Shown here: piece by piece, positions 18,616 through 30,850 of the stretch
Layout: every line of letters begins with the position of its first letter
How positions within the stretch are numbered: position 1 is the first letter of the stretch
Source of the DNA: Microcystis aeruginosa NIES-843
Lineage (GTDB): Bacteria > Cyanobacteriota > Cyanobacteriia > Cyanobacteriales > Microcystaceae
DNA length: 32,000 bases
NCBI RefSeq assembly: GCF_000010625.1
Contig: NC_010296.1
Location: 2,190,001 to 2,222,000 of the forward strand
Reading direction: 5' to 3'
Position numbers and translations under genes: made by a program
Notes under the pieces: model-generated
The model's input: only the letters and a program-made list of their open reading frames with translations
Told to the model about the DNA's origin: nothing
Databases searched by the model: none

Positions 18616-18672
18616 GTCAGGAGGCAGGAGTCGGTCGTCGGTCGTCGGTCGTCAGGAGACAGGATTCAGGAG
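18616..18672. repeat. Composite heptamer block: GTCAGGAGGCAGGAG-(TCGGTCG)x3-TCAGGAGACAGGATTCAGGAG
   Basis: Read directly. It begins 17 nt upstream of the M20 gene start codon and adjoins the CCCCACA array. Confidence 0.9.
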
Positions 18673-18697
18673 ATTGCCTTTATTTATTCTCCCTTCT

Positions 18698-19143
18698 CCC
18701 CACACCCCACACCCCACACCCCACACCCCACACCCCACACCCCACACCCCACACCCCACACCCCACACCCCACACCCCACACCCCACACCCCACACCCCA
18801 CACCCCACACCCCACACCCCACACCCCACACCCCACACCCCACACCCCACACCCCACACCCCACACCCCACACCCCACACCCCACACCCCACACCCCACA
18901 CCCCACACCCCACACCCCACACCCCACACCCCACACCCCACACCCCACACCCCACACCCCACACCCCACACCCCACACCCCACACCCCACACCCCACACC
19001 CCACACCCCACACCCCACACCCCACACCCCACACCCCACACCCCACACCCCACACCCCACACCCCACACCCCACACCCCACACCCCACACCCCACACCCC
19101 ACACCCCACTCCCCACACCCCACTCCCCCACTCCCCCACTCCC
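18698..19143. repeat. Giant heptamer array: 58 perfect CCCCACA units (18698-19103), then about 5 degenerate units (CCCCACT/CCCCCACT)
   Basis: The phase was checked at several points along the array. The complement is (TGTGGGG)n. The array is flanked by an identical 9-mer CTCCCTTCT at 18689-18697 and 19139-19147. Confidence 0.95.
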
Positions 19144-19644
19144 TTCTTTACAAAACTTCATCGTAATTGGAGGGCTGGAAAGGGCAATCCTTGGGCAATA
19201 GGGGAAGGGAAAGCGGGGAAATATTAAAAAAAACTTAAAATTTTTATCTTGCTGCCCTTTATACCCTTAAAGCCTTGCTGTCTCTGATTTCCCGACGGTG
19301 AGAGGCTTTGAGCCATGGTCAGGAATTGATGACCAACTCGATCGAGTCATTGTTAAGTGACCGTTACAAAAAGACAGCAAAAAACTTAATAATATGTAAC
19401 AAACAAAGTTTCGACAGCAGTGTATAAATTTAACTTGAGGGGCCAAGATAACAGACAAAAGTTAAGCTGGATACTTGTTTAACCTCCTTAGGTGATTTAT
19501 GAGAGAGCAGTGAAGTTTTTTCAGGTTTCTTAAAGTAAATCGCAACAATCACGGTCAAGGCTCGTCCAGACTCACCGTGAAATCCCTTAAGAGGGAAAAT
19601 TTTAATTGCAAGCAAATCCCATTTAAATTTAGGAGATTGTCACA
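19144..19644 (+). promoter_or_regulatory. cpcB upstream region (promoter plus long 5' leader), with the SD AGGAG at 19631-19635
   Basis: A 500-bp stretch with no convincing CDS directly upstream of cpcB. By analogy with the long cpcB upstream promoter region used in Synechocystis (Pcpc560). The exact TSS and -10/-35 are not determinable by eye. Confidence 0.45.
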
Positions 19645-20163
19645 ATGTTTGACGCATTCACCCGGGTAGTATCCCAAGCTGATGCTCGCGGCGAATATTT
19701 AAGCTCTTCCCAACTAGACGCTCTGAGCGCCATGGTTGCCGACAGCAACAAACGGATGGACTCTGTTAACCGGATCACCAGTAACGCTTCCACCATCGTT
19801 GCCAACGCCGCTCGTAGCCTGTTCGCTGAACAGCCCCAACTGATCACCCCCGGTGGTAATGCCTACACCAGCCGTCGTATGGCCGCTTGCTTACGCGACA
19901 TGGAAATCATCTTGCGTTATGTTACCTACGCTACCTTCTCTGGCGACGGCAGTGTTCTCGATGATCGTTGCTTAAATGGTCTGCGCGAAACCTATGTAGC
20001 TTTAGGAGTACCAGGAGCTTCCGTAGCTGCTGGCGTAAGCAAAATGAAAGAAGCGGCTTTATCCATTGCTAACGATCGCAACGGTATCACCCCCGGCGAT
20101 TGCAGTGCTTTAATGTCTGAAATTGCCAGCTACTTCGACCGCGCCGCCGCTGCTGTCGCCTAG
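19645..20163 (+). CDS. cpcB: C-phycocyanin beta subunit
   Basis: [27 protein letters not shown]...[19 protein letters not shown]. 172 aa. Unmistakable. Confidence 0.98.
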
Positions 20164-20229
20164 TCCCTGGGGCTAGTCTCAATTAAACCGTAGGAAACTT
20201 ATTGCAAGATTATTGGGAGATACCAAACA

Positions 20230-20718
20230 ATGAAAACCCCCCTTACCGAAGCCGTAGCAGCCGCTGATTCTCAAGGTCGTTTCTTAAGCAGCACCGAAAT
20301 CCAAACTGCTTTCGGTCGTTTTCGTCAAGCTTCTGCTGGACTCAGCGCCGCTAAAGTGTTGACCGAAAAAGCCAATTCTTTGATCTCTGGCGCTGCTCAA
20401 GCTGTGTACAACAAGTACCCCTACACCACCCAAATGCAAGGGGCTAACTTTGCGGCGGACCAACGCGGTAAAGAAAAATGCGCTCGTGACATCGGTTACT
20501 ACCTCCGCATGGTGACCTACTGCTTAGTTGCTGGTGGAACCGGTCCGATGGACGAGTACCTCATCGCTGGTATCGACGAAATCAACCGCACCTTCGACCT
20601 GTCTCCTAGCTGGTACATCGAAGCTCTCAAATATATCAAAGCCAACCATGGTTTAAGTGGCGACCCTGCGGTAGAAGCCAACTCCTATATCGACTACGCT
20701 ATCAACGCTCTCAGCTAG
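20230..20718 (+). CDS. cpcA: C-phycocyanin alpha subunit
   Basis: [25 protein letters not shown]...[29 protein letters not shown]. 162 aa. Confidence 0.98.
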
Positions 20719-20737
20719 TCCGATCGAAAAAACTGCT

Positions 20738-20797
20738 GGTCTGGAAAGACAGGAGGTTGTTAGCAAAAGGGTTAGCAATCACCTGTTCTTCCAGACC
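20738..20797 (+). terminator. Long imperfect stem-loop between cpcA and the first linker gene (candidate partial terminator or mRNA-stabilising hairpin)
   Basis: GGTCTGGAAAGACAGG (20738-20753) pairs with CCTGTTCTTCCAGACC (20782-20797), 14 of 16 positions, followed by TTGTTAT. Confidence 0.45.
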
Positions 20798-20837
20798 TTG
20801 TTATATCCATTAAAGGTTAGTTTCAGGAGGATCGACG

Positions 20838-21653
20838 ATGACTAGCTTGATAGCGGCCCAAAGACTGGGATTTGAACCCTACAACGGTTCCCCCCGCTTG
20901 GAATTACGCTCCACCGACAGTGATGAACAGGTAGAAGTGGTGATCCGCGGGGCCTATCGACAGATCTTGGGCAACGAGCATCTGATGTCCAGCGAGCGCC
21001 TGATCAGCCTAGAATCCCTCTTACGCAATCGTTCCATTAGCGTCAGGGATTTTGTTCGGGCGATCGCTCAATCAGAACTATATCGGCAGAAATTTTTCCA
21101 CAGCAATCCCCAAAATCGCTTTATCGAGTTGAATTATAAACACCTGCTCGGTCGCGCTCCCTACGATCAAGCCGAGATCGCTGTCCATAGCGATCTCTAC
21201 AATCAACAGGGTTACGAAGCAGAAATTAATTCCTATTTCGATTCCCCCGAATACAACCAACATTTCGGTGAGAACATTGTCCCCTACTATCGCGGTTTCG
21301 CTACCCAGACGGGTCAGAAAACCGTCGGTTTTAGTCGGCTGTTCCAAGTCTATCGCGGTTATGCGACCAGCGATCGGGCGCCGTTAAAAGAGGGAAAACT
21401 GACCAGGGAACTAGCCTATAACAGTGCTTCCCCCGTTTATATTAACGGAACTGGTCAATCCTTAACCGGATTAGCTGGGGGCGATCGGGGCAAATTCTAT
21501 CGCTTGCGCGTGGTGAGTGGCGCAAAAGCGGGACGACAAACCCGTGTGCGTCGCAGTGTGAGCGAGTATCTCGTTGCCTACGAGCAACTATCGAACAAAT
21601 TGCAAGAAATCAACCGTCAAGGCGGCCAGGTAATCGAACTGATCCTCGCCTAG
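20838..21653 (+). CDS. cpcC2: Phycobilisome rod linker polypeptide (CpcC type, 271 aa)
   Basis: PBS-linker domain ([21 protein letters not shown]...[18 protein letters not shown]...IVPYYRGF) plus a C-terminal CpcD-like domain (FYRLRVV...[18 protein letters not shown]). The C2 label follows the Synechocystis cpcBAC2C1 order and lengths only. Confidence 0.9.
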
Positions 21654-21698
21654 CTTTGAGCGGTCAGAAAATGATCATTTTTTTGTAGGAGAACTTTA

Positions 21699-22577
21699 GT
21701 GGCAATTACTACCTCAGCTTCCCGTTTAGGGACAACCGCTTTTAGCGAAGTTGCTCCCGTGGAATTACGTCCCGATTGGTCCCGTGACGACGCACAGGCG
21801 GTTATTCGCGCCGTCTATCGTCAGGTGCTAGGCAATGACTATATCATGCGTTCCGAGCGCCTTACCAGTGCCGAATCCTTACTCTGCAATGGTTCGATCA
21901 CCGCGCGGGAATTCGTCCGCGCCGTGGCCAAATCGGAACTGTATAAGAACAAATTCTTCTACGGTAACTTCCAAACCCGCGTCATCGAACTTAATATCAA
22001 ACATCTTTTAGGTCGCGCTCCCTACGATGAGTCGGAAGTGGTCTATCACCTCGATCTCTACGAAAACAAAGGATTCGAGGCCGATATCGACTCCTACATC
22101 GATTCCGCCGAATATACCGAAAACTTCGGTGATAGCATCGTTCCCTACTATCGCGGTTTTGCCAGCCAACCCGGTCAAAAAACCGTGGGATTTACGCGGA
22201 TGTTCCAACTCTATCGCGGTTATGCCAACAGCGATCGCTCTCAGATTGCCGGCAAAACCTCCCGTTTAGCGGTGGAATTAGCTCAAAACGGTGCTTCGGC
22301 AGTAGTCGGTCCGTCCGGTGGCAGCGATGGTTGGGCCTATCGTCCCTCTGCTCAACGCAACACCCCCAGTAAAGCTCTTGGTGGTAGTGTGGCCTATGGT
22401 GATGTGGGTAAGCTCTATCGCGTGGAAATTGCCGCCATCAGCAAACCGGGTTATCCCAGTGTCCGTCGCAGTAGCAAAGCGGTTATCGTCCCCTTTGAAC
22501 AGTTAAATAACACCCTGCAACAGATCAACCGTCTCGGTGGCAAAGTTGCCAGCATCACCCCCGCTAGTTTGAACTAA
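21699..22577 (+). CDS. cpcC1: Phycobilisome rod linker polypeptide (CpcC type, 292 aa)
   Basis: GTG start preceded by [21 protein letters not shown]-terminus, PBS-linker domain and C-terminal CpcD-like domain (LYRVEIAA...[18 protein letters not shown]). Confidence 0.9.
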
Positions 22578-24498: not shown

Positions 24499-25263
24499 AT
24501 GACAACTCTCGACATTTTACCGGAAGTTACCTGTCCCCCCACCGATTTATGGAGTGATGAACCACCTTTGGAAAGTGATCTACATCTGCAACAAATTACA
24601 ATTCTGATCGGTTGTTTGGAAAGGTTATGGCAAGAGAAAAACGATTACTACGCTTCCGGTAATCTGACTATCTACTATAACGAAGAACAACTGAAAAAGC
24701 GCGATTTCTGTGGTCCTGATTTTTTTGTGGTTTTAGATACGGAAAAACGTCCCCGCAAAAGTTGGGTAGTCTGGGGAGAAGGGGGTAAATATCCCAATGT
24801 AATCGTGGAGATTCTTTCCGATTCTACGGCCAATATTGACCGCACTAAAAAGAAAATTCTCTATCAAAATACCTTTCGCACTCCTAATTATTTTTGGTTT
24901 GATCCTAATACCTTAGAATTGCAAGGATTTAGATTAATTGCGGGACAATATCAGGCTATTGCTGCTAATGAAAACGGCTATTTATGGAGTGAACAATTAG
25001 AACTCTATTTAGGCATTTTTGACCGTAAACTGCGTTATTTTACCACCGATGGTCAATTGGTTCCCACTCCCCAAGAAGCTGAATTAGAGCAAAGACAAGC
25101 AAAGGAACAGATTCTTTTAGAAAGGGAACAGATTCTTTTAGAAAGGGAACAGGAACGACAAGCGAAGGAACAGGCTATCCTCGAAAAAGAACAAGCTATC
25201 TTGGAAAGGGAAAGATTAGCCCAAAAATTACGAGAATTGGGCATTGATCCTGAAACTATCTAA
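24499..25263 (+). CDS. Uma2-family (DUF820) putative endonuclease with a C-terminal coiled-coil repeat tail
   Basis: PDFFVVLD, VVWGEGGKYPNVIVEILSDST and YFWFDPNT are typical Uma2 motifs. The tail is EQILLEREQILLEREQERQAKEQAILEKEQAILERERLAQKLRELGIDP. Confidence 0.8.
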   Translation: MTTLDILPEVTCPPTDLWSDEPPLESDLHLQQITILIGCLERLWQEKNDYYASGNLTIYYNEEQLKKRDFCGPDFFVVLDTEKRPRKSWVVWGEGGKYPNVIVEILSDSTANIDRTKKKILYQNTFRTPNYFWFDPNTLELQGFRLIAGQYQAIAANENGYLWSEQLELYLGIFDRKLRYFTTDGQLVPTPQEAELEQRQAKEQILLEREQILLEREQERQAKEQAILEKEQAILERERLAQKLRELGIDPETI

Positions 25264-26410: not shown

Positions 26411-26563
26411 ATTAGAGTTCAACTATCATATATACTATGGGCGGAGTTTACAATAGTTGCCAATGATTTAGATGCAGCTGTTCCTCGTCAGATCGAGGTT
26501 TTGGCAAAACCTCAAGATAAATTAATTATCGCTCATGATGAGATGTGGTCGTTCTTTCCCTAA
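26411..26563 (+). pseudogene. Short remnant of a DDE transposase gene (IS1-like DEMWSF motif)
   Basis: Hand translation of the stop-to-stop frame: IRVQLSYILWAEFTIVANDLDAAVPRQIEVLAKPQDKLIIAHDEMWSFFP*. The xxDEMWSFx string is typical of the first catalytic-Asp region of IS1-type transposases. There is no start codon and no downstream continuation. Confidence 0.35.
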
Positions 26564-26611
26564 AAAAATGGATAATCACTTTGGAGCTATTCACCCCCCG
26601 AAATTGAATGA

Positions 26612-27613
26612 TTATTTAGCTAATTTTTCCAGTTTTTTCTTAGTTTTCTGAAGTTTTAAGGCTAAATTACCATGATGTTCGGGATAGTAAACGTGCAAGA
26701 ATTCGATAAAATCCTCGATGGTACAAGGTTGATGAAATCCCCCTAAATTACCGTGGAATTCTTGGTGAATTTCTTCTTTAATAGTCACCAAATTCAGATC
26801 TAATGTCGCTAGATGGGGATATTTTTGGACAGAGTAAAGATGATGGACAGCGAGATTAAATCTATTATTTCTATCCGGTTTTTGCCCTGTCACCTGACAA
26901 GTGTTTTTATCTCTAGTTTTAGCTCGTTTTTTAGCCTTTTCAATCTCGATTTTTTGTTTGGTATCGTCATCTAGATGTTCCTGAATTTCTTTAAAGGCAA
27001 GAGGAAACTCCATTGCAATCATTTTACACATTTCTTGGCGCGATTTATTCGTCAAAGTTTCACTCATGGATTTAGAAATCATCACTATTCCACTTTCAGA
27101 GAACCAAAACTCTCTTTTTTCATCTTCGTAAAAATCTACTCCTAATTCTAGAGGTTTATCAGTTCTTTGCTGAAGATGATTCACGGTTTTATTTAGCTTG
27201 GTTCCATTAGTTTTTAAAATTCGCCGCAAACTCTGTTTATGAATCATAGGCCGTCCTTTATAAACTTGAATTTCGCCGGAGTCAGTGAGTTCAGCAAAAA
27301 TTAATTTTCGTGCTAAGGAGCGACGAATTTTTTGATCGTGCTTAGTAAAAAATTCTCTAAATCTGTATATAATTCCTCGCTTTTCATTCTTCTCGATATA
27401 GGAAGCAATTTTTAAAGCACCTTCAAAAGAAAACACTCTAACTTTATCTTTTTTATTGACAAATTGATAATCGACACCTTCAACTAAATCCCAATCATCA
27501 TTAGGATCAGCATCAAAAATATCAACAATTTTTTCTAGTTTTTCAAGAGTAATAGAAAACCATTGAGCTAATTCGGTATCCCGGATCAGGAAGGTATTTG
27601 CTTTCTGAGGCAT
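26612..27613 (-). CDS. Hypothetical DNA-binding/HNH-nuclease-like protein: two tandem related N-terminal modules plus a C-terminal HNH-type motif
   Basis: C-terminus CQVTGQKP...NLAVHHLYSVQKYPHLATLDLNLVTIKEEIHQEFH fits an H-N-H pattern. Modules LVEGVDYQFVNKKDKVRVFSFEGALKIASYI and LELGVDFYEDEKREFWFSESGIVMISKSM look like an internal duplication. The start codon is 2 nt after the upstream gene's stop. Confidence 0.6.
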   Translation of the reverse strand: MPQKANTFLIRDTELAQWFSITLEKLEKIVDIFDADPNDDWDLVEGVDYQFVNKKDKVRVFSFEGALKIASYIEKNEKRGIIYRFREFFTKHDQKIRRSLARKLIFAELTDSGEIQVYKGRPMIHKQSLRRILKTNGTKLNKTVNHLQQRTDKPLELGVDFYEDEKREFWFSESGIVMISKSMSETLTNKSRQEMCKMIAMEFPLAFKEIQEHLDDDTKQKIEIEKAKKRAKTRDKNTCQVTGQKPDRNNRFNLAVHHLYSVQKYPHLATLDLNLVTIKEEIHQEFHGNLGGFHQPCTIEDFIEFLHVYYPEHHGNLALKLQKTKKKLEKLAK

Positions 27614-27615
27614 GA

Positions 27616-28218
27616 TTATTTTATCTCCGTGGTGATAGATTTATACATCACAGTCAAACGATCAAAGATGTGAGAGTTTCCTGTTTCTTGGTTATCGGGA
27701 TGATAGATCTTAGAAAGACGATAATAGGCATTTTTAATGTCTTCCTTGCTGGCAGTATTTGGATCAAGATCGAAAACACGATAGGGACGAAAATATTTAA
27801 AAATATTGATACCGTTGATACAATCTTTCCCCTGTTCGTAATCTTCTTCGGGAAGAATACCGATATATTTCCTGTAGATAACCTCCCAACTTTCTCGCTG
27901 AGATAAATTGATGTTATCAAAGGCTCTAGTAGCCATTTGAAACATACTCGATTTTTTTAGTTCTGTGGTATTGTTAACCTCAAAATAGGCATAAACTGCC
28001 TGTTTAAGTTGCGTTAGAGTTAAAGGTTTAACTTTTGAGCTTGTGGTGGTGGTGGCTGTAGTTTTTGATTTAGTTAACGATGGTTTGGGAGACTTTTTAC
28101 GGTGGTTTTTGATGACAAAATCGGCAAAATCTTCGAGAATACGACTTTCGATCGAGTATTGCTCACAGATATGACTAATCTGCTCTAAAATGAGCGAGTT
28201 AAGAGGATTAGTGGTCAT
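27616..28218 (-). CDS. J-domain (DnaJ-like) protein with an unrecognised 130-aa N-terminal region
   Basis: C-terminal YRVFDLDPNTASKEDIKNAYYRLSKIYHPDNQ carries the HPD tripeptide in the canonical J-domain helix II-III context. It has no Gly/Phe or zinc-finger regions. The ATG at 28218 is preferred to the TTG at 28239. Confidence 0.7.
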   Translation of the reverse strand: MTTNPLNSLILEQISHICEQYSIESRILEDFADFVIKNHRKKSPKPSLTKSKTTATTTTSSKVKPLTLTQLKQAVYAYFEVNNTTELKKSSMFQMATRAFDNINLSQRESWEVIYRKYIGILPEEDYEQGKDCINGINIFKYFRPYRVFDLDPNTASKEDIKNAYYRLSKIYHPDNQETGNSHIFDRLTVMYKSITTEIK

Positions 28219-28870
28219 AATTTCCCTAAGAAGCTGCAAAAAATCTAGCCTTTCTTATCAAGATGAAGTGTAGGCTAATTTGGTATGAACGACCGACGAC
28301 TGACTCCCGAAAACTTCCTATCCTAAATTAATACCACAGCAGTGGCCACTTTATCAAGTGGTTAATCATAAAAAAAATTGCTGGCATATTATAGATTTAA
28401 GTCAATAAATGGGCAGCCGTGGCTCTTCTAGGTTCTGTGTGATCAGTTTAACTTACTATAGAAGCGATCAATCTTTGTGTCCTCTGTGTCTGGAGTGGTT
28501 CCTTCCACTCCCTCCCCAGCAGGACTGTATCTTAGAATACATTTTACCCACCAAACCGAAGAGAGCTGCAGCCGTTTAGCTAGGCAGTCATTCTAAAGAT
28601 AAGATTCCCAAGAGCGATGGTAAAGTTGAGACTAGAATTGAGGAGACAGTCGGGAAATTTTTACCTAATCAAGAAAAGATGGCTCTCTGAGTCTTTGGGT
28701 GAAAAATGTTCACCACGTCACATTATGCACGGAAGCTTTCATAGGTGGCAACTTAAGCAAGAAGCTTAATTATCAAGAGTAGCTGATCATCCAAGGGGAA
28801 GGACGTAAAAAATGGTAAAATAAGGCAGATAAATCTAACAATAATCCTAATTCCTACACCTACTATTTTT

Positions 28871-29875
28871 TTAGGTTTTAGAGGGGAAGTAACCAAACAG
28901 TTTTTTATAATCAGAGGCCAGATATCCTCGGTGAAAAAAACCTAATTCTTCAGCAATTTCATAAATTAATTTTGTCTGATTATTTTGGTTAAGAGATTGA
29001 TGTAGAGCATTAAGACGAAGCAATTTAAAATAATTGTAAGGAGACATTTGATAGAAGTCTTTAAATATATATTCTAAGGTGCGTTGACTTACTTTTAAGT
29101 CTTGACAAATCGCTGGAATAGTAAGATCAGAACGCAGATTTTTTCTCATCATTTCTTCTGCTTTTTTGAGAATAGAGGTGCGTCTGATAGTGTTTTTAGG
29201 AGTTTTAATATCTTTGGTTACTGCTAAAGTCAAAAGAAAATCTTTGACAATTTCTTCTTTTAATTTTTGCTTGACAAAATTTAATCTTAATGCTTTTCTT
29301 TGCCCAGATATTTGTTGACGATCTAAATTAAATAGCATTTGATAAAGTTGATGACAAGATTGTTGGAGATGACGAATTTTTTCCGATGGGCAAATCACAA
29401 TAGAAGAAGCGGAAGAATTTAAAAACTTTTTCGCTTCTGGTAGCTCTAAAGTTTGGCACAATTGTTGCAGATAATTATCATGAACGTAAAGCTGAAAACG
29501 ATTGGAAAAAGGATGTTGAAAAACGGAAATTTCTGATTTAGGGGGGATAATCCCCAGATAGTTATTTTCTAATGGATACAAATTTTGGAAGAAGACAGAA
29601 TTCACCTGAACAGGAATCGCAAAAACCCACATTTTAGAATGGATTACTCCCGCAACATTCGTTAAACAATTACGTTGCGATAATTCTAACATCACTTCAT
29701 CGATGATGATCCTTGAAAGATACCCTTCAAAATGATCACCACTGAGTTGTAAAGCATCTACGTTGAGAAATTCTCGATTCTGAAAATAGCGAGAAAAGTC
29801 ACAAACATATTCACTTTTAAAGGTTAATTCCTGAGAATTAATTAAAATATTGGTTTTATTGTCAAAAATAAACAT
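28871..29875 (-). CDS. AraC-family transcriptional regulator
   Basis: C-terminal double HTH (LTIPAICQDLKVSQRTLEYIFKDFYQMSPYNYFKLLRLNALHQSL...IYEIAEELGFFHRGYLASDYKKLFGYFPS). An N-terminal domain of about 220 aa is presumably the sensing domain. Confidence 0.85.
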   Translation of the reverse strand: MFIFDNKTNILINSQELTFKSEYVCDFSRYFQNREFLNVDALQLSGDHFEGYLSRIIIDEVMLELSQRNCLTNVAGVIHSKMWVFAIPVQVNSVFFQNLYPLENNYLGIIPPKSEISVFQHPFSNRFQLYVHDNYLQQLCQTLELPEAKKFLNSSASSIVICPSEKIRHLQQSCHQLYQMLFNLDRQQISGQRKALRLNFVKQKLKEEIVKDFLLTLAVTKDIKTPKNTIRRTSILKKAEEMMRKNLRSDLTIPAICQDLKVSQRTLEYIFKDFYQMSPYNYFKLLRLNALHQSLNQNNQTKLIYEIAEELGFFHRGYLASDYKKLFGYFPSKT

Positions 29876-30076
29876 CTATATATAACTATTTGGTTATTGA
29901 GTAAAGTTAAAATTTTTTTGCCCATCAATTTAAAAACTTGCGTTTTTTGGATCATCTTAGCATAGAAGACTGAGTAGTATGAGTTAAAGCAGAGTTGGTT
30001 TGTTAATTTTGTCCATCAGTGTAATTCCAGCTAAATCTCTCACTTTTTTCCGTTATCAATTACTAAGGAGATTTCG

Positions 30077-30712
30077 ATGGCTAAACAATATATGCCACTT
30101 GAAGATTGCTCTGGGTCTGCGGTATTGGGTGGAGAAATTCCGCAATTACGTCCCCCAGCATTTTCTGATCACCCACAATATACCACATTTAGCTATACCT
30201 ATCATCCAGGGGGATCAGAAATTTCCGAAGCTGTTGCCCCTAATATTAGCACTCGTTTCTATGCCATCGAAGCAACTATTGATTTCTCCAACGCTAAAGG
30301 GGACTTACAAGGTGTTCTGATGGCGCACGGCGGATGTTTTGGTGGACATAGTTTCTACATCTATCAGGGAAAACTATGTTATGTCTATAACTGGTTAGGA
30401 CAACAACAGAAGATCACTTGTGATCTTCCTCGTCTTAGTAGCGAGGTGACACTCAAAGTTGAATTTGCCAAACCAAAGATAATCGCCCCTTCCGATGAAA
30501 AGTTGGGTAACAGCACAATAGATAAGATGAAACTGTATATTAATAACATCGAACAAAATGTCGATATTATAAGAACTTTATCAAATCATACTCCTAACTT
30601 CCTAACTCAATATAAACACGAGATTCCTTACGAGTTTCAAGGTGCGAAGCTGCAAAGAATTATCGTTACCATTACCAATGATATTATACTAAATCCCTTG
30701 AGTAAAGGCTAG
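30077..30712 (+). CDS. Stand-alone protein homologous to the C-terminal domain of large arylsulfatases (no catalytic sulfatase domain)
   Basis: YTYHPGGSEISEAVAPNISTRFYAIEATIDF...GVLMAHGGCFGGHSFYIYQGKLCYVYNWLG matches the conserved C-terminal module of arylsulfatases of about 780 aa. It has its own SD (AAGGAG 7 nt upstream) and an in-frame stop at 30032-30034. Confidence 0.65.
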   Translation: MAKQYMPLEDCSGSAVLGGEIPQLRPPAFSDHPQYTTFSYTYHPGGSEISEAVAPNISTRFYAIEATIDFSNAKGDLQGVLMAHGGCFGGHSFYIYQGKLCYVYNWLGQQQKITCDLPRLSSEVTLKVEFAKPKIIAPSDEKLGNSTIDKMKLYINNIEQNVDIIRTLSNHTPNFLTQYKHEIPYEFQGAKLQRIIVTITNDIILNPLSKG

Positions 30713-30733
30713 TTATGAGGAGAGGCAAAAGGC

Positions 30734-30850
30734 AACCCCCCCGACGTCGGGGGGTTGATTCATAGTAGGGTTGATTCATGAATCAACCCTACCTTGATCC
30801 CCCCTTAATACTAGGGCGTTGACAATCCCCGCACTAAAGCGACGGGGATT
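30734..30850. repeat. Cluster of palindromes: C6-7GACGTCG6 hairpin (30734-30756), perfect 28-bp palindrome GTAGGGTTGATTCATGAATCAACCCTAC (30765-30792), GATCCCCCCTTAATA fragment (30796-30810), and hairpin AATCCCCG-11 nt-CGGGGATT (30824-30850)
   Basis: All read directly. The first hairpin begins 22 nt after the stop of the sulfatase-domain ORF and could act as its terminator. Confidence 0.85.

Follow-up and report, generated by a model that had tools for sequence, protein, structure and literature searches.

The window analysed here, a 32,000-nucleotide stretch of the Microcystis aeruginosa NIES-843 genome (NC_010296.1, positions 2,190,001 to 2,222,000), contains on its minus strand two adjacent genes that are the subject of this work, and the proteins predicted from both of them match the entries of that genome exactly. 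Gene 1 (27616-28218; BAG02275.1) encodes a J-domain protein of 200 residues when read from the ATG at 28218, or of 207 residues when read from an alternative TTG start at 28239, and ends with a TAA at 27616-27618, while gene 2 (26612-27613; BAG02274.1 / WP_012265583.1) encodes a protein of 333 residues which we find to carry a divergent HNH fold in its C-terminal part. At the junction of the two (27611-27618, minus strand) the stop codon (27618-27616) is followed by 2 nt and then by the ATG of gene 2, the A of which is position 27613, and a GGAG lies within the final codons of gene 1. This tight coupling was pointed out in a preliminary description of the window made from the sequence alone, and it is not only present as given there but conserved across the family. 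Public labels for gene 1 are 'DnaJ domain-containing', 'DnaJ' or 'J domain-containing' and, at JGI, 'Sec63', and those for gene 2 are 'hypothetical' and, at JGI, 'ribosomal protein S14'. Both of the JGI names are wrong annotations, and as gene 2 has otherwise been called only hypothetical it is without functional annotation, gene 1 bearing just a domain label.

The J-domain of gene 1 (residues 145-200; 27619-27786, minus strand) is C-terminal and minimal, with the HPD encoded at 27694-27702 and helix IV missing. It is matched by Pfam DnaJ (PF00226) over residues 145-195 with 34.1 bits (gathering score 27.8), corresponding to positions 2-53 of the 63 in the profile, and the same Pfam family is matched in all 22 of the 22 family members. 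In the family alignment Y172, H173, P174 and D175 (YHPD) are invariant. Foldseek likewise aligns the gene 1 model with the J-domains of Sis1, polyomavirus T antigen and Tim14 at probabilities of 0.84-0.99. The NCBIfam models of DnaJ, CbpA and TopJ align to the J region only and stay far under their cut-offs, and no further Pfam domain is found. The protein has no glycine/phenylalanine-rich (G/F) region, no zinc finger and no C-terminal substrate-binding domain, which makes it a class-C (type III) J protein. The preliminary description was thus right in seeing a C-terminal J-domain without other DnaJ or CbpA features, but its notion of an orphan protein has to be abandoned, since the whole 200-residue protein represents a conserved cyanobacterial family. 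A homolog search gave 490 clusters, and full-length relatives with 47-65% identity are found in Crocosphaera, Calothrix, Nostoc, Nodosilinea, Phormidium, Leptolyngbya and others.

Upstream of the J-domain the protein can be divided into three parts, all encoded on the minus strand. A two-helix N-terminal domain (residues 7-39; 28102-28200), with helices at 8-21 and 25-39 in the model and invariant F31, F34 and V35, is followed by a disordered and strongly basic Lys/Ser/Thr-rich linker (residues 41-65; 28024-28098; family median net charge +7 and isoelectric point (pI) 10.6) and by a middle domain (residues 66-143; 27790-28023) with the invariant residues W111, E112, Y115, R116 and G130...C133-I134-N135-G136. 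The AlphaFold model (predicted local distance difference test (pLDDT) score of 74) accordingly has helices at residues 8-39, disorder at residues 42-60 where the pLDDT is <50, a helical middle at residues 68-119, a short hairpin that sits at the invariant GCINGI motif, and then the J helices. In a Foldseek search of the PDB the matches are confined to the J-domain, leaving the first ~140 residues without structural relative, and a profile of the non-J part (residues 1-143) gave 524 matches, among which those listed are only cyanobacterial J proteins of ~200 residues, always fused to a J-domain and showing no new architecture.

The N-terminal domain is missing from the J proteins of four loci (L071, L079, L081 and L111), all of which retain the partner gene. 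At one of these (L111:2578-6693) the J protein has 138 residues, and this copy lies directly upstream of a DNA methylase and a Bpu10I-type restriction enzyme, making the locus one of the few with a defence-type neighbour. A distant relative of the gene 1 middle domain and J-domain is furthermore encoded on a high-GC viral contig (L086:7692-13272; IMG/VR UViG_3300032308_002493) as a 259-residue protein with a Cys-rich N-terminal motif, CGNxCIxxxxxC, which recurs three times in an adjacent ParB-like protein of 1573 residues; no gene 2 homolog is found there, and the same J-protein core thus has a different pairing. Sll0909 of Synechocystis was considered as an ortholog of gene 1 and rejected, as its primer-derived termini (MDDLTIYTSP..., ...DLKEQLGV) misfit the family, and the induction of sll0909 in a lexA mutant is consequently irrelevant to gene 1.

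Gene 2 belongs to no Pfam, NCBIfam or PADLOC family and does not reach the curated HNH thresholds, and the HNH-endonuclease families of PHROG match its residues 224-293 only weakly (E = 8e-5, sub-threshold). A search of 1.84 billion representative proteins returned 202 relatives (clusters at 50% identity), of which ~60 are full-length (310-350 residues) and the others match the C-terminal ~90 residues only. Several of the latter carry Pfam HNH (PF01844) or HNH_2 (PF13391), the closest HNH relatives outside the family are proteins with a helix-turn-helix (HTH) or zinc finger and a C-terminal HNH, and a weak HNH_2 match is present in 14 of 40 members of the family itself. In the AlphaFold (AF2) model of gene 2 (pLDDT 91.8, predicted TM-score 0.72) the corresponding region (residues 237-295; 26729-26905, minus strand) adopts a beta-beta-alpha-metal fold, with core strands at 254-258 and 275-279 and a helix at 280-289, all with pLDDT >97, and it superposes on phage HNH nucleases in a library of viral models (BFVD) with root-mean-square deviations of 1.4-2.7 A and a probability of 1.0. 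Local Foldseek matches of the domain, the whole-chain E-values of which are not significant, include PtuB of the retron and Septu types, Cap5 and the GVE2 HNH. Together with the PHROG matches this establishes the C-terminus of gene 2 as an HNH fold of a divergent subfamily, in keeping with what had been proposed from the motif.

Seven residues are invariant across 40 diverse members of the family (G65, C239, H257, H258, N274, H283 and H287), and an alignment of the domain in 21 diverse members gave the same His, Asn and C239 invariants together with C297. By alignment with the canonical HNH motif, H257/H258 would correspond to the catalytic His (general base) that ends strand 1, N274 to the structural Asn, and H283 and H287 to the metal-ligand His of the helix. 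As was already noted in the preliminary description, C239 is the only canonical zinc cysteine: of the CxxC pairs only this residue is kept (in CQVTG), hydrophobic residues take the place of the second pair, and the second invariant cysteine, C297, lies after the HNH helix, so that a zinc site of two CxxC pairs, a feature of many but not all HNH families, is absent. C297 is part of a C-terminal helical extension (residues 296-333; 26615-26728, minus strand) with a conserved CTxDDFIxF motif. Within Microcystis purifying selection acts on gene 1 and gene 2 alike and both are functional, with ratios of non-synonymous to synonymous substitution (dN/dS) of 0.04-0.29 for gene 1 and 0.11-0.39 for gene 2.

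In the N-terminal half of the gene 2 model a b-a-a-b-b-a topology occurs twice (residues 8-76 and 115-186), the two copies being joined by a 30-residue helix, and alignment of residues 1-82 with residues 108-190 by hhalign (probability 96.1%, E = 3.5e-9, 69 columns) bears out the earlier suggestion of a duplicated module. Both copies show the element order of MerR-type proteins, b1-a1-a2 (HTH)-b2-b3 (wing)-a3, and a long helix comes after the second, an arrangement known from MerR-type regulators. They differ in charge. Module 1 (27386-27592, minus strand), which has a conserved FFDxDPxDxWxLxEG motif and occurs as two alleles in Microcystis, is acidic (family medians of pI 4.7 and net charge -5; pI 4.4 and net charge -6 in the window), whereas module 2 (27056-27271, minus strand) and the helices are neutral to basic throughout the family, with a pI of 9.4 for module 2 of the window. 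The long Lys-rich helix that comes next (residues 190-234; 26912-27046, minus strand; family median pI 9.7) is a single helix of 45 residues with pLDDT >93 and a candidate for a dimerisation or DNA-contact helix. The preliminary description had taken the two modules to be tandem DNA-binding domains, of which the duplication of winged-helix modules stands but DNA binding by module 1 is not supported, since so acidic a winged helix is an unlikely DNA binder; judged by its charge, module 1 may be protein-binding rather than DNA-binding.

Unlike the HNH fold, the assignment of the winged-helix modules to a particular family is no more than tentative. Whole-chain Foldseek comparison of gene 2 with the PDB gives nothing significant (best E ~1), profile searches of PDB sequences with the whole protein and with its domains are likewise without significant matches, and the local fold matches of the modules, to the pSK1 Par DNA-binding domain (TMt 0.80), RacA and BmrR, have E-values above 1. 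An HTH_17 match is found in 2 of 40 members, and in the BFVD the N-terminal part bears a resemblance not to MerR but to phage regulatory, antirepressor, Bro-N or KilA-N proteins.

It should also be mentioned that gene 2 homologs are longer at three loci. In a Merismopediaceae metagenome-assembled genome (MAG; L060:4533-6899) the homolog runs in frame into a complete group-2-type sigma-70 factor (regions 1.2 to 4), giving an open reading frame (ORF) of 788 codons' worth of protein, which is either a true fusion or the product of a lost stop codon, and extended gene 2 ORFs of ~416 residues occur in L056 and L075.

A locus scan with the J-protein alignment shows that gene 1 relatives are encoded by at least 189 species-representative genomes, and the linkage figures given here are from the best 80 loci, which are all cyanobacterial except for one MAG labelled Chitinophaga that is probably mis-binned. 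When hidden Markov models (HMMs) of both families were run on the six-frame ORFs of each locus, a gene 2 homolog was found directly downstream and on the same strand in 79 of these 80, the exception having a truncated J gene; in the opposite direction, each of 4 distant gene 2 relatives (25-31% identity) follows a DnaJ-domain gene at a distance of 0-6 nt. Co-occurrence beyond NIES-843, which had been set as a test beforehand, is thus near-absolute. At 47 of 81 loci the genes are separated by exactly 2 nt, at 70 of 81 the gap lies between -1 and +3 nt, and a Shine-Dalgarno sequence of the GGAG type is often found inside the last codons of the J gene. We conclude that the linkage is obligate in both directions and that translational coupling is conserved. 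The J protein and the nuclease co-diverge, as seen from the correlation of their pairwise identities (r = 0.78, Mantel p = 0.001), and the former is the better conserved (53% vs 38% mean pairwise identity). The flanks contain no further gene family that recurs.

The behaviour of the pair is that of an accessory element. In the window its G+C content is 35.0% as compared with 43.2% in the rest and ~50% in the cpcBA-linker genes (19645-22577), confirming a contrast that had been noted by spot counts, and across the family it falls below that of the flanks in 62 of 64 loci (mean 37.8% vs 46.5%, a difference of 8.7 points; Wilcoxon p = 2.6e-11), in high-GC hosts extremely so (e.g. Nodosilinea, 41% vs 59%). 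There are at least five subfamilies, which are incongruent with taxonomy: the Nostoc parmelioides protein is 67% identical to that of Prochlorothrix and 45% identical to that of another Nostoc, and one Prochloron MAG has three copies from three subfamilies (36-40% identity). The neighbours of the pair differ among genera, and even within the species blastn delimits a discrete cassette of ~2 kb (26585-28566, minus strand) as the unit common to the window and M. aeruginosa NIES-4325, with both flanks different; in the window the pair lies between an AraC-like gene and ddl, and in NIES-4325 (L008) between genes for a HoxU-like Fe-S protein and an epimerase. Base composition, subfamilies and flanks together suggest horizontal exchange of the pair, and the earlier view that it was horizontally acquired gains support from them, but different flanks alone are no proof of mobility, since Microcystis genomes rearrange often.

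The copies furthermore decay and recombine. In Crocosphaera chwakensis CCY0110 (L003:6587-9109, the same as L009) a transposase gene of the IS66 family (483 residues, opposite strand) lies inside gene 2, splitting it at about residues 160-178 and leaving the J gene intact, and the gene 2 of a related Crocosphaera MAG (L010) is uninterrupted. Altogether 8 loci have a broken gene 2 (by IS66 insertion, frameshift, split or truncation) next to an intact J gene, and there is no clear converse; three apparent cases of a broken J gene are paralogs without the N-terminal domain. Within Microcystis gene 2 is an allelic mosaic: between the window and locus L007 the J gene has 98-99% nucleotide identity, the first 100 nt of gene 2 only 63%, and the sequence thereafter 92-100% (compared regions: window 27386-27613, i.e. 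gene 2 residues 1-82, L007:862-1110 and L008:4603-4850). The alleles of module 1 fall into two classes of 117 and 2 clusters, the minor one comprising the window (NIES-843) and P0001 and found also in L005, and 26 of the 40 amino acid differences between gene 2 alleles are located in residues 1-82.

Such properties bring to mind a selfish cassette of the homing-endonuclease kind, in which gene 2 would be a site-specific HNH endonuclease promoting its own spread or retention. The J protein would assist it, either by having DnaK release or recycle the enzyme when this is tightly bound to DNA or by keeping its harm to the host in check. Separate DNA-binding modules joined to an HNH fold are indeed the architecture of free-standing phage and homing HNH enzymes (I-HmuI-like, NUMOD-HNH and NinG-type), the nearest relatives outside the family combine an HTH or zinc finger with a C-terminal HNH, and NUMOD3-HNH and NinG are among the fold matches in the BFVD. 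The low G+C relative to the hosts, the sporadic occurrence between unrelated housekeeping genes, the discrete ~2-kb unit with other flanks in NIES-4325, the multiple copies in some genomes and the decay by insertion or frameshift in others, and the replacement of module 1 by a second allele with a breakpoint at the gene junction all fit such a cassette as well. However, no target site, intron, intein or flanking repeat has been identified, synteny on the ddl side is mostly stable within Microcystis (it is kept in three strains), and both genes are under purifying selection. Furthermore, gene 2 differs from these enzymes in carrying its HNH domain behind the winged-helix modules and the long helix and in having lost the canonical CxxC zinc pairs, and the family is always paired with a J gene and was found in none of the phage and plasmid records searched, nor in IMG/VR. 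An obligate and better-conserved J partner is without known precedent among homing endonucleases. We consider a homing cassette unlikely.

The proposal made in the preliminary description that the pair is a replication or maintenance module left by an integrated plasmid or prophage, with the J protein recruiting DnaK to an initiator and the upstream spacer acting as origin, can be essentially excluded. The notion stems from the dependence of lambda, P1 and F replication on DnaK and DnaJ, and the AT-richness of the pair, the presence of one distant copy near a phage-tail-like gene (L109) and the distant J-protein relative on the viral contig L086 could be taken in its favour. However, tblastn of both proteins against 72,556 plasmids (PLSDB) and of gene 2 against 50,697 phages (INPHARED) gave no match. 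In IMG/VR the pair was not found and none of the viral loci retrieved has a full-length gene 2 homolog, the gene 2 HMM having just two weak partial matches (E = 1.4e-4 and 4.9e-3), and gene 1 has J-domain-only matches apart from the single middle-plus-J relative beside the giant ParB-like protein. A mechanically called census of the two nearest ORFs at each locus (141 genes) contains no integrase, rep, par or structural phage genes and consists mostly of housekeeping genes, with scattered PIN, CHAT, transposase, restriction-modification or other defence matches. The spacer at 28240-28870, put forward as a candidate origin, holds no iteron-like repeats, what repetition there is being short, in two copies and no more than chance would produce, and beyond ~350 bp the upstream sequence is not conserved between Microcystis strains. 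Gene 2, finally, is an HNH nuclease and no recognisable initiator.

The part of the upstream region that is conserved (28219-28376, minus strand) is near-invariant in five Microcystis strains, the sequence farther upstream being unrelated, and it matches no Rfam family. It includes a candidate promoter with a -35 element TTGATA at 28352-28357, an 18-nt spacer and a -10 element TATTAA at 28328-28333, overlapped by CCAC/GTGG palindromes at 28334-28361 (all on the minus strand). These palindromes are candidate operators and may, by their position over the promoter-like element, serve autoregulation. Such a leader would suit a chromosomal factor of DNA metabolism or stress regulation, where the winged-helix protein would bind specific DNA, perhaps its own promoter, as a regulator, nucleoid factor or repair nickase and the J protein would modulate its DNA binding together with DnaK, as in the HspR-DnaK, Helicobacter pylori HspR-CbpA and CbpA-CbpM circuits. 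J proteins do recurrently partner with MerR-like winged-helix proteins (PMC4063869; PMC7074700), H. pylori CbpA for instance modulating the MerR-family repressor HspR (PMC7074700), and the local fold matches, which are to DNA-binding domains of the MerR type with a long helix after them, the housekeeping neighbours, and the wide distribution in one phylum under purifying selection all agree with a regulatory role. On the other hand, the HNH catalytic-type residues are invariant family-wide, which favours catalysis over pure DNA binding, and a patchy distribution incongruent with taxonomy, AT-richness, multiple copies and decaying copies are atypical of a housekeeping regulator. The pair also appears to be absent from Synechocystis PCC 6803, where Sll0909 misfits by its termini and the other J proteins listed differ by their described architecture. 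The palindrome, moreover, has no counterpart upstream of the pair in other genera, where many loci have palindromes but none is common across genera. A regulator of this kind is accordingly improbable in our view.

The other proposal of the preliminary description, a chaperone-gated toxin or abortive-infection system, is compatible with the evidence and is the reading that we tentatively favour: the pair would be a self-contained, cyanobacteria-restricted accessory module of two genes, whose products act together in a toxin- or defence-like conflict system. In class-C J proteins it is the non-J region that ties Hsp70 to a single client or site, and the HPD is required to trigger the Hsp70 ATPase. 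Since the J protein has no constant companion other than the nuclease, which is encoded on the same mRNA and has its translation coupled to that of gene 1, we infer that the nuclease, or its complex with DNA, is the client. The physical complex, recruitment of DnaK, nuclease activity, direction of gating and biological role that we infer would then come together as follows. The non-J parts of gene 1 would dock the J protein onto its partner or the partner-DNA complex, and the C-terminal J-domain with its invariant HPD would recruit host DnaK (Hsp70) and trigger its ATPase. Gene 2 would be both client and effector, an HNH nuclease with intact catalytic-type residues that basic module 2 and the long basic helices position on DNA. 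Acidic module 1 would be a protein-contact module that may, as CbpM does with CbpA, bind gene 1 at either its J-domain or its basic (+7) linker, a suggestion prompted by its acidity throughout the family, which is like that of CbpM (pI 5.2, net charge -6). Engagement of Hsp70 through the J protein would gate the nuclease and make its activity dependent on the state of the chaperone system, so that control would be lost and DNA cut once DnaK is titrated off by phage capsid synthesis or proteotoxic stress.

We favour chaperone gating on account of the accessory behaviour of the pair and of three precedents. CbpM, a MerR-like protein encoded just downstream of CbpA, binds the CbpA J-domain competitively with DnaK (PMC4063869); SecB-like chaperones gate the toxins of toxin-antitoxin-chaperone (TAC) and CmdTAC systems, from which a phage capsid protein displaces the chaperone (PMC11618068; bioRxiv 10.1101/2024.02.24.581848); and bNACHT25 requires host DnaJ for phage sensing (PMC12169576). 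More daring, and doubtful, is the idea that the pair is the founding member of a new class of conflict systems, in which a nuclease with its own J adaptor uses host Hsp70 as regulator and as sensor of infection or stress. Such an 'outsourced chaperone guard', where titration of DnaK releases an HNH DNase, would be exchanged among cyanobacteria including bloom-forming Microcystis.

A number of points weigh against chaperone gating as outlined here. The gating could be reversed, with DnaK activating or recycling the nuclease instead of restraining it. The upstream J gene is the better conserved of the two (53% vs 38%), which is the opposite of the usual fast-evolving antitoxin, and the components of type II toxin-antitoxin systems are typically smaller than both proteins. 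The absence of PADLOC matches for gene 2, the only match for gene 1 being a spurious one (E = 0.02), likewise tells against a defence function, as do the mostly housekeeping character of the immediate neighbours and the lack of a defence-island signal among the 141 of them, defence-type matches occurring at few loci. The decay of gene 2 alone is suggestive at most, since several of the cases are MAGs or nanopore-only assemblies and may reflect sequencing errors. The label 'MerR-like', moreover, derives from local matches and topology, as whole-chain fold matches to the PDB are not significant, and homology of the modules to CbpM, which was tried and rejected, gave a non-significant hhalign probability of 17.5% with module 1 (31 columns) and no match with module 2, for which reason CbpM is kept as an analogy.

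As an analogy the E. coli cbpA-cbpM operon is nonetheless close in several respects. There too the operon starts with the J gene, to which the next gene is coupled (the coding regions of cbpA and cbpM overlap by 1 nt), and the product of that next gene, the MerR-like CbpM, is acidic like module 1 (pI 4.4-4.7, net charge -5 to -6), which has the topology of a MerR-type winged helix. CbpM contacts the CbpA J-domain on the surface used by DnaK and thereby switches CbpA off (PMC4063869). However, CbpA is a full class-B homolog of DnaJ with an N-terminal J-domain, whereas that of gene 1 is located C-terminally on an unrelated body of 140 residues; CbpM has 101 residues and no nuclease, whereas gene 2 consists of two modules and an HNH domain; and CbpAM is gamma-proteobacterial, whereas the family described here is cyanobacterial.

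TAC and CmdTAC resemble the pair in placing a dedicated chaperone in the operon of a toxic effector that is released by titration with phage capsid (PMC11618068; bioRxiv 10.1101/2024.02.24.581848; PMC5105189), and in their accessory and patchy distribution. They have three genes, however, and their SecB homolog acts itself, whereas the J adaptor would borrow host Hsp70. Their toxins are RNases or ADP-ribosyltransferases and not HNH DNases, there is no homology, and in our pair no labile antitoxin-like protein or chaperone-addiction (ChAD) element has been identified. Septu PtuA-PtuB, retron-associated PtuAB and Cap5 of the cyclic-oligonucleotide-based antiphage signalling systems (CBASS) are related by the local HNH fold matches and by an organisation in two genes, where the partner would provide ATP-dependent control, but in our case the partner is a J protein that could act only through host DnaK and not an ATPase, PADLOC has no match, and whole-chain fold E-values are not significant. 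Class-C J proteins such as HscB, DjlA, Tim14/Pam18 and polyomavirus T antigen share the combination of a minimal J-domain with a unique targeting domain, and the principle of one client per J protein. Gene 1 departs from these by a targeting region without recognisable relative, by the extreme C-terminal position of a J-domain lacking helix IV, and by a presumed client that is a nuclease of the same operon.

Neither gene matches a known toxin, antitoxin or defence family in PADLOC or Pfam, and literature searches on the combination of J-domain and HNH, on the accessions, on DnaJ and HNH in Microcystis and on gene-neighbourhood analyses found no description of the pair. In agreement with the preliminary description, no already characterised phage, plasmid or defence module thus matches it in PADLOC, PLSDB, INPHARED, IMG/VR or the literature. 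The components are of known kinds, namely a class-C J protein, an HNH nuclease and the principle of chaperone-gated toxins; it is their combination and the use of a J adaptor to host Hsp70 that would be new. If the two proteins cooperate as proposed, this would be a bacterial J protein dedicated to one nuclease of the same operon, extending the class-C logic of one J protein for one client to DNA cleavage. The recently recognised toxin and defence systems with chaperone gating, exemplified by TAC, CmdTAC and bNACHT25-DnaJ, would thereby gain a form based on Hsp70, and should the pair turn out to serve defence or addiction with Hsp70 as its sensor, it could arguably be counted as the first of a new class. 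The pair occurs in at least 189 species-representative cyanobacterial genomes, among them those of bloom-forming Microcystis, the bloom dynamics of which are shaped by phage-host conflict, and a functional label would correct many annotations. The module spans ~2 kb, and each gene offers obvious residues for mutation (HPD in gene 1; H258 and H283 in gene 2).

Directly upstream of the operon the window has a segment of ~2.4 kb (~28377-30817) with the AraC-family gene (28871-29875, minus strand) and an ORF of 211 residues without Pfam match (30077-30712). This segment is missing at the same position in the Microcystis loci L006 and L007 and is thus a strain-specific indel. On the other side, between ddl and gene 2, a short reading frame on the plus strand (~26430-26570) ends in ...KLIIAHDEMWSFFP*, and this is what had been called a transposase fragment in support of horizontal acquisition. 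The 42-residue peptide (~26440-26570) has no Pfam match and its assignment to an insertion sequence family goes back to a DE.WSF motif, so that a transposase fragment at this place is unconfirmed.

Two features farther from the pair may be mentioned. At 18650-19200, between a peptidase-like gene and cpcB, lies a long perfect tandem repeat of short period that reads GVWGVGC or PHTPHPT depending on the frame and has a G+C content of 55-58% and an extreme strand skew (GC skew of -0.5); every ORF spanning it is probably an artefact. Between ribBA and ddl, a gene at 24499-25263 encodes a putative restriction endonuclease of the Uma2 family with a C-terminal tandem repeat (EQILLEREQ / EQAILEKEQ), and this repeat region is variable among Microcystis strains.

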